Assembly (NCBI GenBank): GCA_038321315.1
Contig: JBBQEX010000005.1
Span: 36,097 to 100,096 of the forward strand
Source: Haliangiales bacterium
GTDB taxonomy: Bacteria; Myxococcota_A; Polyangia; Haliangiales; Haliangiaceae
DNA: 64,000 bases
Direction of reading: 5' to 3'
Within the stretch, counting starts at the first letter, position 1. The number at the start of each line of letters is the position of its first letter. Made by a program: the position numbers and the translations under genes. Below, piece by piece: positions 62,012 to 64,000 of the stretch. The notes below the pieces were generated by a model. It worked only from the letters and a program-made list of their open reading frames with translations. It made no database searches and was not told the DNA's origin.

Positions 62012-62836
62012 GTGACCGAGCTGACCCTGGCGGTCGTGCCGTCGTCGACGCCGGGGGATCGACAGGTCGCCCTCGACGCGCTGTGCGCCGCGCTCGGCTC
62101 CCTCGTCGGCCGCAAGTTCCGCGGGGTGCTGTCGCCGAGCTACCAGGCGCTGGCGAGCGCGCTCGAGCGCGATCAGGTGCAGTACGCGTGGATGTCGCCG
62201 GCGCTCGTCGTGCTCACCGAGGAGCAGATCAAGCTGCGCCCGCTGCTATCGGCGATCCGCAACGATCGCATCGACTACTGCGCGGCGATGTTCGTCGACG
62301 CGCGCTCGACGTTCGACGTGCTGCTCGAGCTCGAGGGCAAGACGGTCGCGTGGGTCGATCCGACGTCGGCCGCGGGCTACCTGTGCCCGCGCCTGCAGCT
62401 GCTGTCGCGCGGCATCGAGCCCGCCACGTTCTTCGGCGAGGAGCTGTTCGTGGCGTCGCACGCCGAGGTCGTCCGCGCCGTGTTCTCCGGTCGCGCGCAG
62501 CTCGGCGCGACCTACGCCGAGCGCCCCGAGACCCTCGATCACCCGATCCGGCGGGCCGGCTTCATCGACGTCGCGCCCGACCACGAGGCACGCGTGCTCG
62601 AGTGGACGCCCGCGATCCCCAACGACGTCATCGCCGGCCACGGCCTGATCTCGAGCGCCGAGCACCGCATCGTGTCCAACGCGATCCTCACGCTCGCCGA
62701 GCGCAACGACGGCCGGCGGCTGCTCTACAACGCGTTCCACGCCGAGAACTTCATGACCACCCCGAAAGACGCACTCGCGCCGCTGCGAGAGCTCGTCCGG
62801 CGGGCGCGCGCGCACGGCCTGCTGACGCACCTGTGA
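62012..62836 (+). CDS. PhnD/SsuA-like (PF12974-type) substrate-binding domain protein, no signal peptide
   Basis: LTLAVVPSS...YAWMSPALVV...DPTSAAGYL pattern of the phosphonate-binding periplasmic fold. The N-terminus lacks a signal peptide, so it may be cytoplasmic or a sensor module. Confidence 0.6.
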   Translation: MTELTLAVVPSSTPGDRQVALDALCAALGSLVGRKFRGVLSPSYQALASALERDQVQYAWMSPALVVLTEEQIKLRPLLSAIRNDRIDYCAAMFVDARSTFDVLLELEGKTVAWVDPTSAAGYLCPRLQLLSRGIEPATFFGEELFVASHAEVVRAVFSGRAQLGATYAERPETLDHPIRRAGFIDVAPDHEARVLEWTPAIPNDVIAGHGLISSAEHRIVSNAILTLAERNDGRRLLYNAFHAENFMTTPKDALAPLRELVRRARAHGLLTHL

Positions 62837-62916
62837 ATTGGGGACGGTTTCAGCTCTGGCCCCTTTTGGCGTACGCCAAAAGGGGCCAGAGCTGAAACCG
62901 TCCCTAATTCACAGGG
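62829..62916. repeat. About 88-bp near-perfect palindrome (64-bp perfect core 62841..62904) between convergent genes
   Basis: GGGACGGTTTCAGCTCTGGCCCCTTTTGGCGTACGCCAAAAGGGGCCAGAGCTGAAACCGTCCC is its own reverse complement. The arms extend into cCTGTGAATTg / tAATTCACAGg, which cover both stop codons. Confidence 0.6.
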
Positions 62917-62925
62917 CGGGCCGTG

Positions 62926-64000
62926 CTAATTCACAGGGCGGGCCGTGACGCGCAGCGTCCGGTGCGCCTTGCGTCCGGCATCGTCGGACACGACGATGTC
63001 GTGCTTGCCGACCGTGGGCGTCCAGTAGCGCCGCTCGCTGGCGGGCGCGGTGGCGATCAGGGCGCCGTCGACGAACCAGCGGACGGTGGCGGTCCGCGTC
63101 GCGGCGGCGAGCGGCACCTGCTGCTGTTCGGCGGGCACACCGGGGATCAGCGTGACGACCTCGCCCTCGACGGGTGCCTTGATGACCGGCGGCGCGGTGT
63201 CGCTGCCGCCGACCGAGACGCCGACCGAACAGCCGGCGGCCATGACCGGCGCCTCGGGGATCGCGCGGTTGCGCTCGACGAACCACGACTGCACCGCGCT
63301 CGGCAGCACGACGTACGAGCGCTTCTCGTAGTCCTTGTCCGGCACGCGACACGCCGGGAGCACGGCCTCGTGCGTCTGCGGATCGATGTCGAAGATCTGA
63401 TGGTACGGGCACGGCACGGTCGGCACCGAGTGGATCGGCGCGCGCACCTTGACGCGGTGCTCGCACGCGTCGGTCGGGATGTGCCCGGAGTAGGCGCAGA
63501 CCTCGATCTCCACGAGGTCGGGGGGCGGCGCGACAACGCCCGGGGCCTTCGCGCGATCGGCGACGCCCTCGAGGACGTCGAACAAGAGCGGCCCGGCGGC
63601 CTCGGAGCCGACCAGCTCGGCACTCGGCTTTTCGTCGACGTTGCCGGTCCAGACCACGGCGGTGTAGCCGGGACCCGAACCGGCGGCCCACGCGTCCTTG
63701 AAGCCGAAGCTGGTGCCGGTCTTCCAGTGGATCGCGGCCGGCATGCCGTTGACCGAGCGGCGCTTCGGGAAGTCGGGGCGATCGCGGATCGCGAGCGCCT
63801 CGCGGGTCAGGAAGGCGGCGCCGGCCCCGAAGATCGGCAGCGCCTTGGGCACGCGATCGCCGGCGACCAGGCGCAGCGGGCGGTAGTCGCCGTCCTCGGC
63901 AAGCGTGGCGTACATCCCGGCGAGCTCGAGCGGCGTGAGCTCGATGCCGCCGACGATCAGCGACAGGCCGAACTGATCGGTCATCTTCTGCGAGGTCGCC
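62926..64000 (-). CDS. pbpC: Penicillin-binding protein 1C (transpeptidase end and C-terminal PBP1C domain); 5' part beyond window end
   Basis: The reading frame stays open to position 64000 (…ATSQKMTDQFGLSLIVGGIELTPLELAGMYATLAEDG). WKTGTSFGFKDAWAAG is the KTG(T/S) box. The C-terminal about 200 aa resembles the PbpC-specific domain. Confidence 0.75.
   Translation of the reverse strand, partial: ATSQKMTDQFGLSLIVGGIELTPLELAGMYATLAEDGDYRPLRLVAGDRVPKALPIFGAGAAFLTREALAIRDRPDFPKRRSVNGMPAAIHWKTGTSFGFKDAWAAGSGPGYTAVVWTGNVDEKPSAELVGSEAAGPLLFDVLEGVADRAKAPGVVAPPPDLVEIEVCAYSGHIPTDACEHRVKVRAPIHSVPTVPCPYHQIFDIDPQTHEAVLPACRVPDKDYEKRSYVVLPSAVQSWFVERNRAIPEAPVMAAGCSVGVSVGGSDTAPPVIKAPVEGEVVTLIPGVPAEQQQVPLAAATRTATVRWFVDGALIATAPASERRYWTPTVGKHDIVVSDDAGRKAHRTLRVTARPVN

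Follow-up and report, generated by a model that had tools for sequence, protein, structure and literature searches.

Here, we describe a long palindrome at the 3'-3' junction of two convergent genes in an uncultured, Kofleriaceae-like myxobacterium, a Haliangiales bacterium (GTDB lineage Myxococcota_A; Polyangia; Haliangiaceae), on contig JBBQEX010000005.1 of GenBank assembly GCA_038321315.1. The whole stretch of DNA that was analysed, 64,000 nt from positions 36,097 to 100,096 of this contig, is referred to as the window, and all positions are counted from its first letter. To the left of the palindrome lies a gene for a PhnD/SsuA-family substrate-binding protein (62012-62836, + strand; 274 amino acids; Pfam PF12974, E 1.4e-37), hereafter the PhnD-like gene, and to the right lies the 3' part of pbpC, the gene for penicillin-binding protein 1C (62926-63984, - strand; Pfam BiPBP_C and Transpeptidase domains), which continues past the end of the window. 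Judged by eye, the N-terminus of the PhnD-like protein has no obvious signal peptide. A gene of the phosphoenolpyruvate-mutase family (33289-34455, - strand) lies 28 kb from the PhnD-like gene.

Architecture of the junction

The palindrome occupies 86 nt (62830-62915, no strand) and consists of two arms of 43 nt each (62830-62872 and 62873-62915) that are 98% complementary and meet without a spacer, G62840 versus T62905 being the sole mismatch between them. Its core of 64 nt (62841-62904) is perfect, with 30-nt arms around GTAC at 62871-62874. The original prediction, made from the sequence alone, had recognised both the near-perfect palindrome with one mismatch and the perfect 64-nt core, and both structures stand; the lengths change slightly, from 88 to 86 nt for the whole and from 31 to 30 nt for the core arms. 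The centre, GCGTACGC, is an 8-nt palindrome, and the AATT found on either side of the core is self-complementary and itself part of the palindrome. The GC content of the core is 62.5% versus 70% in the 64-kb window.

The two-fold symmetry reaches beyond these 86 nt. Positions 62812-62822 pair with 62916-62926 at 10 of 11 positions (anchored chance p ~0.0024), and a 7-nt bulge on the left-arm side, TGACGCA (62823-62829), separates this outer pairing from that of the main arms. The stem measures 43 bp, or 54 bp when the outer extension is counted. The extended left arm (62812-62872) is made up of the outer 11 nt, the bulge and the main 43-nt arm, and the extended right arm (62873-62926) is an inverted copy of it that differs by the substitution at 62905, a 7-nt deletion and one more substitution.

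Both genes run onto this structure. The last 25 nt of the PhnD-like gene constitute the outer left arm, and its TGA stop codon (62834-62836, + strand) lies 5 nt inside the stem. On the other side, CTAATTCACAGGGCGGGCCGTG is present exactly twice, in tandem, at 62904-62925 and 62926-62947, and the two copies are 100% identical. Copy 1, a portion of the right arm, does not lie in the pbpC reading frame, while copy 2 holds the pbpC stop codon (CTA on the + strand, 62926-62928) together with the last six sense codons, T-A-R-P-V-N. The earlier claim that both stop codons sit on the element holds, with the TGA of the + gene inside the left arm and the pbpC stop in the adjacent repeat unit; the claim of a tandem repeat whose second copy ends pbpC holds as well, except that this copy carries the last six codons rather than seven. 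The arm mismatch is of consequence for pbpC: T62905 opposite G62840 converts TGG to TAG in the pbpC reading sense, and this TAG is the pbpC stop. Given a perfect arm and a single repeat copy, pbpC would extend 19 codons through the palindrome. Collapsing the 22-nt repeat leaves the pbpC product the same, and the two-fold symmetry then extends further. The repeat comprises exactly 2.0 copies, has no microhomology at its edges and is the sole perfect long-period tandem repeat in the window. Two repair-related origins had been suggested for it: a replication error at the hairpin is a reasonable explanation, but a target-site duplication misfits, as both copies are found to one side of the palindrome.

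The palindrome is far beyond chance. In 100 shuffles of the window, the 43-nt arm found no match. There is no other long, high-identity inverted repeat in the 64 kb, and the runner-up palindrome in 220 kb (the window together with related Kofleriaceae loci) has 15-nt arms. RNA folds of the region reach −147.7 and −132.8 kcal/mol for the two strands (z = −14.1 and −12.8), and the DNA fold has a z of −16.9. For the 86-nt stem alone, the values are −85.9 kcal/mol on the + strand and −81.6 kcal/mol on the - strand; for an extended 115-nt stem, they are −108 and −103 kcal/mol, respectively. The G/T mismatch between the arms becomes a G-U pair in the + strand RNA. These RNA and DNA folds bear out the initial view of the locus as a hairpin-forming site, and a very stable hairpin is predicted for both transcripts. 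A search of Rfam returned only sub-threshold models of animal and plant microRNA precursors, which are generic matches to a long hairpin.

The junction in related genomes

The PhnD-like protein has 204 homologues, mostly in metagenome-assembled genomes of Kofleriaceae and Myxococcales; the identical protein is recorded once, and its cluster has a single NCBI member. We examined 71 loci from GTDB genomes and three further loci (L079-L081). The nearest relative, represented by three independent assemblies (L001-L003), has 88% amino acid identity in the PhnD-like protein and 87% in pbpC, and shares with the window the gene order TPR protein, metallophosphoesterase, PhnD-like protein and pbpC. Direct adjacency of the PhnD-like gene and pbpC is kept only in these three assemblies; in L006, pbpC is 1.9 kb away. 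In the nearest relative, 20 nt separate the two stop codons and there is no palindrome. Thus, the comparison with relatives that the original prediction had pointed to finds the same gene pair in L001-L003 with the palindrome absent. At the DNA level, the flanks of the window and of this relative are ~90% identical up to 62837 and again from 62947. The alignment leaves a lineage-specific segment between these points (62838-62946), which measures 109 nt in the window versus 28 nt in the nearest relative, and no significant similarity was found between the two segments. The ancestral state that we assume for the junction is read from this one outgroup lineage, which is not a direct ancestor.

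The two gene ends differ in how they are conserved. The 3' end of the PhnD-like gene, GCACGGCCTGCTGACGCACCTGTGA, which codes for HGLLTHL followed by the stop, is conserved at 25 of 26 positions in L001-L003 and is conserved in L019, L012 and L021 as well. The pbpC product ends in ...RTLRVVN* in the relative and in ...RTLRVTARPVN* in the window, and a protein search with the pbpC C-terminus returned nothing closer than 64%. Across the family, the tail that follows the conserved ...RRTLxV motif measures from 1 to ~12 residues. This variable length indicates that the tail is free to change and that its rewriting would be tolerable. A perfect palindrome of 10 nt, GTCAATTGAC, closes pbpC in the nearest relative and encodes V-N-stop (L001 3253-3262, also in L002 and L003). 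The window pbpC likewise ends in V-N-stop (GTG AAT TAG), and the two tails do not appear to be positionally homologous.

In another Kofleriaceae relative (L009, ~3822-3862), a hairpin of ~40 nt lies right after the stop codon of the PhnD-like gene and contains an 18-nt perfect palindrome, CAATGCCGATCGGCATTG, with GCGCCTAGCGC on both sides; its sequence is unrelated to the window palindrome. A small pre-existing hairpin at the junction was also considered, with CTAATTCACAGG in the window as the homologue of CTGATTGCGCAGG in the spacer of the nearest relative, and was dropped at p = 0.35 on shuffles.

The comparison also bears on whether the assembled sequence is correct. An assembly or sequencing artefact could affect the locus in whole, as a fold-back chimera in the consensus, or in part, with only the 22-nt repeat being false and arising from two contig ends that overlap by 22 nt and were left unmerged. 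The sequence is carried by one assembly only, and the repeat has the traits of such an overlap: exactly two identical copies without microhomology at the edges, no other perfect long-period tandem in the window, and a collapsed form that preserves the pbpC product and extends the symmetry. However, both flanks continue in the right synteny and reading frame when compared with the relative, whereas a simple fold-back chimera predicts that the right flank repeats the left flank in reverse complement, and no such repetition is observed. Moreover, the arm-specific differences, i.e., the 7-nt gap and the substitutions, one of which makes a stop codon, are not expected from mechanical fold-back, and the 64 kb contains no further sign of joining artefacts. 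We consider an artefact, in either form, to be quite improbable. A simple fold-back chimera is unlikely to be the source of the palindrome itself, and the exact 2.0-copy repeat could be an unmerged contig overlap. To our knowledge, no sequencing adapter resembles the core.

Search for further copies and for known element types

The palindrome had been proposed to be an element of the repetitive extragenic palindromic (REP) or miniature inverted-repeat transposable element (MITE) type, with a search for repeated copies as the way to decide. Allowing up to three mismatches for the arm, and using 14-mers from within it, no second copy was found in the 64-kb window; the only matches were the two arms of the locus itself. 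A 20-mer from the arm had no match in GTDB, sampled as one genome for each of 185,579 species, and none among IMG/VR viral contigs, and BLAST with the 64-nt core found no match in PLSDB plasmids or in phage records. In JGI metagenomes, the 20-mer had two matches (L077 and L078), in line with the 1-2 chance matches that the size of this collection leads one to expect, and neither fits the whole arm even when eight substitutions are allowed. The first, on a 64%-GC contig, was rejected as a homologue and judged to be a chance match: it is an ordinary terminator with an A-tract, a 10-bp stem and a T-tract. As such, it is a textbook bidirectional intrinsic terminator (L077 3468-3505, AAAAAGGCCAGAGCT-TTC-AGCTCTGGCCCCTTTTT) that has an exact 20-mer in common with the palindrome arm. 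The second, on a 58%-GC contig, was rejected because it matches over 22 nt and the partner arm is absent. Pfam scans of the ~42 open reading frames of the window gave no transposase, integrase, REP-associated tyrosine transposase (RAYT; Y1_Tnp), recombinase or protelomerase domain. Thus, the palindrome is unique within the window, its core is unmatched in plasmids and phages, and its arm 20-mer is unmatched in the species genomes.

These searches weigh on the idea that a small mobile palindromic element of the REP or MITE kind was inserted between the two genes, with the complementarity to the flank either pre-existing or acquired later. The core does have a GC content below that of the genome and lacks a homologue in the spacer of the relative, and the AATT flanking the core on both sides could be read as a 4-bp target duplication. 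However, AATT is its own reverse complement and is already accounted for by the palindrome, and the arms extend into a conserved coding part of the left gene, which, together with the missing second copy in the window and the collections and the missing transposase and RAYT domains in the window, makes insertion of a mobile element very unlikely. REP elements, with their composite forms, the bacterial interspersed mosaic elements, and MITEs resemble the palindrome in being extragenic, often located at gene 3' ends and able to act as hairpins in 3' untranslated regions (UTRs). They differ in that they are multi-copy families, recognisable by characteristic heads or terminal repeats, by target duplications and by a matching transposase (RAYT or that of an insertion sequence), whereas the palindrome is single-copy and has none of these. 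Specifically, a REP, which is a short imperfect palindrome of ~20-40 nt with a conserved GTAG-type head and numbers tens to hundreds of copies per genome, is contradicted by the single locus in the window, by the near-perfect pairing over 86 nt, by the absence of a GTAG head at either end and by the lack of a RAYT in the window open reading frames; a MITE is contradicted by the single copy, by the one-sided position of the 22-nt copies, by the self-complementarity of AATT and by arm ends that are conserved host coding sequence.

A site recognised by a protein, such as a dif/Xer site, a protelomerase-type target or another recombinase or partition site, was considered as well. A dif site is ~28 nt long and asymmetric, has imperfect 11-nt half-sites around a centre of 6-8 nt, occurs once per chromosome at the terminus and is conserved among relatives. 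In favour of this type of reading, protelomerase targets are typically long, perfect palindromes with one copy per replicon. The proposal of a dif-like site founders on the architecture, with 43-nt arms lacking a central spacer, and on the absence of the site from the orthologous junction of the nearest relative. An integron attC site, an imperfect palindrome that has extrahelical bases and neighbours gene cassettes and intI, does not fit either, as the core pairing is perfect without bulges, RYYYAAC and GTTRRRY ends are missing and the window contains no integrase. Retron, attC and protelomerase readings were all rejected for lack of the partner genes and defining motifs. The neighbours are housekeeping genes common to the relative, no recombinase or protelomerase domain is encoded in the window, and part of the palindrome codes for the two genes; we regard a protein-recognised site as extremely improbable.

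Proposed origin by inverted duplication in place

The structure of the palindrome, its uniqueness and its absence from the closest relative are matters of direct observation. We suggest, as a somewhat probable explanation of them, that the palindrome is a young, lineage-specific inverted duplication that arose by snap-back replication or template switching at the 3'-3' junction and was followed by a small tandem duplication. Several observations bear on this proposal. First, the outer part of the left arm is ancestral sequence, of which the right arm is an inverted copy, and both facts are likewise directly observed. Complementarity of the right arm to the conserved gene end covers 8 nt directly (CCTGTGAATT/AATTCACAGG), and beyond the 7-nt gap the match to the end of the PhnD-like gene resumes over GCACGGCC(T/C)GC. 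Because the outer left arm is conserved coding sequence, the copying of the outer arm ran from left to right. The arms end in a conserved coding end and its inverted copy and thus not in the termini of an element from outside, and this speaks for templating on the spot and against an insertion. Second, as expected for template switching, the new right arm (62873-62926) is the reverse complement of a sequence, 62812-62872, that pre-existed at least in its outer part, and the inverted copy is lacking in the outgroup, i.e., in the 88%-identical relative and its three assemblies. Third, the arms diverge at 1 in 43 positions versus a DNA divergence of ~10% between the flanks and the relative. This low divergence indicates that the event is much younger than the split from the relative or that the arms are being homogenised. 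Fourth, both repeat copies hold the base that creates the stop codon and, therefore, the 22-nt duplication came last.

We infer the following mechanism, acting in replication or repair, and the following order of steps. Synthesis of a nascent strand would have passed through the end of the PhnD-like gene and ~36 nt of spacer beyond it; the strand would then have folded back at the short central palindrome GCGTACGC and would have used itself or the complementary strand as template. In this way, the pbpC side would have received the spacer and the final 25 nt of the PhnD-like gene in reverse complement, and synthesis would have rejoined pbpC just past the codons for ...RTLRV. In place of the unconstrained tail that ends pbpC in the relative (VN*), the inverted copy would thereby have supplied TARPVN*. 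Later changes would comprise the 7-nt deletion, two substitutions, of which one created the pbpC TAG, and the 22-nt tandem duplication. At the return junction, GCGCG(T)CACGG is present on both sides as a GC-rich microhomology that may also be due to chance.

Such a mechanism is established elsewhere. In Escherichia coli, quasipalindromes become "perfect or more perfect" through template switching (PMC7202029), and inverted repeats of only 5-9 bp suffice to seed snap-back palindromic duplications (PMC7999016). The proposed event resembles the quasipalindrome mutations of the Ripley model and of the E. coli reporters of the Lovett laboratory (PMC7202029), in which the nascent strand serves as template and perfects or lengthens a local inverted repeat, and it resembles short-range template switching (PMC7954356), in which an inverted copy is templated from sequence a few tens of nucleotides away; in both, as here, one templated event accounts for a cluster of changes. 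However, the published template-switch events convert a few nucleotides in ~18-bp stems, whereas at least 54 nt appear templated here (PMC7202029, PMC7954356). Also unlike those events, what results is a palindrome without a spacer, with arms of 43 nt, that rewrites the 3' end of a neighbouring gene, and the event is read from one genome and one relative. Fold-back after a double-strand break (PMC7999016) is alike in that a short inverted repeat at the centre, here GCGTACGC, can serve as the primer for synthesis back along its own strand, which yields a perfect palindrome. By contrast, the known fold-back cases are large palindromic chromosome duplications in yeast and mammalian cells (PMC7999016), whereas the copy considered here is ~60 nt long and rejoins the original chromosome on the other side.

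Six points weigh against this explanation. The inner 32 nt of the arm (GGGGACGGTTTCAGCTCTGGCCCCTTTTGGCG) have no detectable ancestor and are unlike the spacer of the relative. An ancestral spacer of 36 nt would be unusual for a genome whose convergent genes abut. The copy of the outer arm is imperfect, with its 7-nt gap and substitution, and one clean snap-back event is therefore insufficient. The 22-nt tandem duplication is left unexplained by the model, and flanking microhomology is absent. The V-N-stop of pbpC in both lineages, in tails that are not homologous by position, is a coincidence that the model does not account for. Lastly, the lineage is represented by a single assembly in the collections searched and lacks independent confirmation.

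Possible function at the mRNA 3' ends

Whatever its origin, the palindrome is predicted to give both mRNAs a very stable 3'-terminal hairpin (about −86 to −108 kcal/mol), and such a hairpin should hinder read-through and 3' exonucleases in both directions. A stable hairpin is predicted on both transcripts just past the convergent stops, as in hairpin-only bidirectional terminators. Roles in insulating transcription units and in protecting mRNAs have been proposed for the I-shaped terminators of high-GC bacteria and for REP hairpins in 3' UTRs. The palindrome is like the hairpin-only (I-shaped, U-tract-less) and bidirectional terminators in its site between convergent stop codons, its GC-rich stem and its folding on both strands. 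However, the stems of hairpin-only terminators are typically 5-20 bp, whereas the stem here is 43 bp (54 bp extended) and is not conserved in the nearest relative. A canonical (L-shaped) intrinsic terminator does not fit, as the stem is without a U-tract: no U/T tract follows it on either RNA, where UAAUUCAC comes next on the + RNA and CAAUUCAC on the - RNA, and a terminator scan of the window did not flag the site. The initial remark that the palindrome is far longer than a typical intrinsic terminator and has no U-tract agrees with the 43-bp stem and the lack of a T tract seen here.

The window provides a context for these features. Canonical terminators of the hairpin-plus-T type are not enriched, with two found versus 3.4 expected. 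The other seven of its eight convergent junctions (4355/4356, 29050/29055, 33289-33294, 38091/38095, 46248/46249, 52030/52031 and 61432/61433) abut, overlap or are separated by no more than 4 nt, with stops meeting as, e.g., TGA/TCA or TAG/TCA. Their spacers measure −6 to +4 nt and have no room for a hairpin. Convergent genes of this genome meet with practically nothing between them.

Could the hairpin nevertheless be a selected bidirectional terminator or 3' stabiliser, which would be kept, independently of its origin, for insulating the convergent units and shielding both mRNAs from 3' exonucleases? The palindrome sits exactly between the two convergent stop codons, the 86-nt stem is very stable on both strands (−85.9 and −81.6 kcal/mol), the sole mismatch is a G-U pair in the + strand RNA, and the near-perfect arms could reflect maintenance. 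Two-way hairpins at convergent 3' ends have been reported from other bacteria. However, the closest relative lacks the palindrome at the same junction, the seven other convergent junctions are hairpin-free, and a 43-bp stem without a U-tract far exceeds the needs of termination or RNA protection; covariation has one sequence only to draw on. Furthermore, long spacer-less palindromes are a known replication hazard (PMC7999016) and thus a liability, which suggests that the element is young rather than maintained. We found no sign of selection for the hairpin, and a selected terminator or stabiliser appears unlikely. Because the relative is without the palindrome, a U-tract is missing, terminators are not enriched and the other convergent junctions have no room, we regard the hairpin as probably a by-product rather than a selected function. 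A bolder version, which we hold to be decidedly doubtful, is that the palindrome is genuine, stably inherited and a newly born two-way transcription insulator that originated by one-step templated inverted copying, which also gave pbpC its new tail, read antisense to the coding end of its neighbour. If so, this lineage would tolerate an 86-bp spacer-less palindrome that SbcCD-type hairpin nucleases would be expected to attack.

Other features of the window

A second inverted repeat in the window is of a different kind. It is low in GC, lies at 56785-56821 and has 17-nt arms (TTACCTACGCATCCGTA / TACGGTCGCGTAGGTAA) that are 88% complementary around a 3-nt loop. It falls in the 41 nt that make up the upstream extremity of a stop-to-stop open reading frame for a FAD/NAD-binding oxidoreductase (55746-56825, - strand), and the next open reading frame downstream codes for a fatty-acid desaturase (54650-55735, - strand). 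This repeat may be an operator. An open reading frame of ~2155 amino acids (4905-11372, - strand) codes for nine Big_2 Ig-like domains and a lamin-tail domain, and includes a tandem repeat of two 261-nt units with 74% identity (8280-8810). The region is rich in signalling genes, among them two adenylate/guanylate cyclase genes (39997-42267 and 45211-46248, both + strand), one of which has a dCache sensor, and a GAF-GGDEF gene (29747-30763, - strand).

Implications

The locus is best filed as a further example of templated inverted duplication, a known type of event, in this case giving rise to a 3' hairpin. It does not introduce a new element family or system, and its value is illustrative rather than fundamental. 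If reads confirm the sequence, it would be a clean natural case of a mutational process that is mostly known from reporter genes and eukaryotic genomes. If the proposed origin is true, one templated inverted duplication would have built a long perfect palindrome in a bacterial chromosome, a strong 3' hairpin for two genes and a protein C-terminus that is read antisense to the gene next door. Confirmation would also mean that a spacer-less palindrome with 43-bp arms can exist, at least transiently, in a bacterial genome, which bears on how bacteria handle hairpin-forming DNA.

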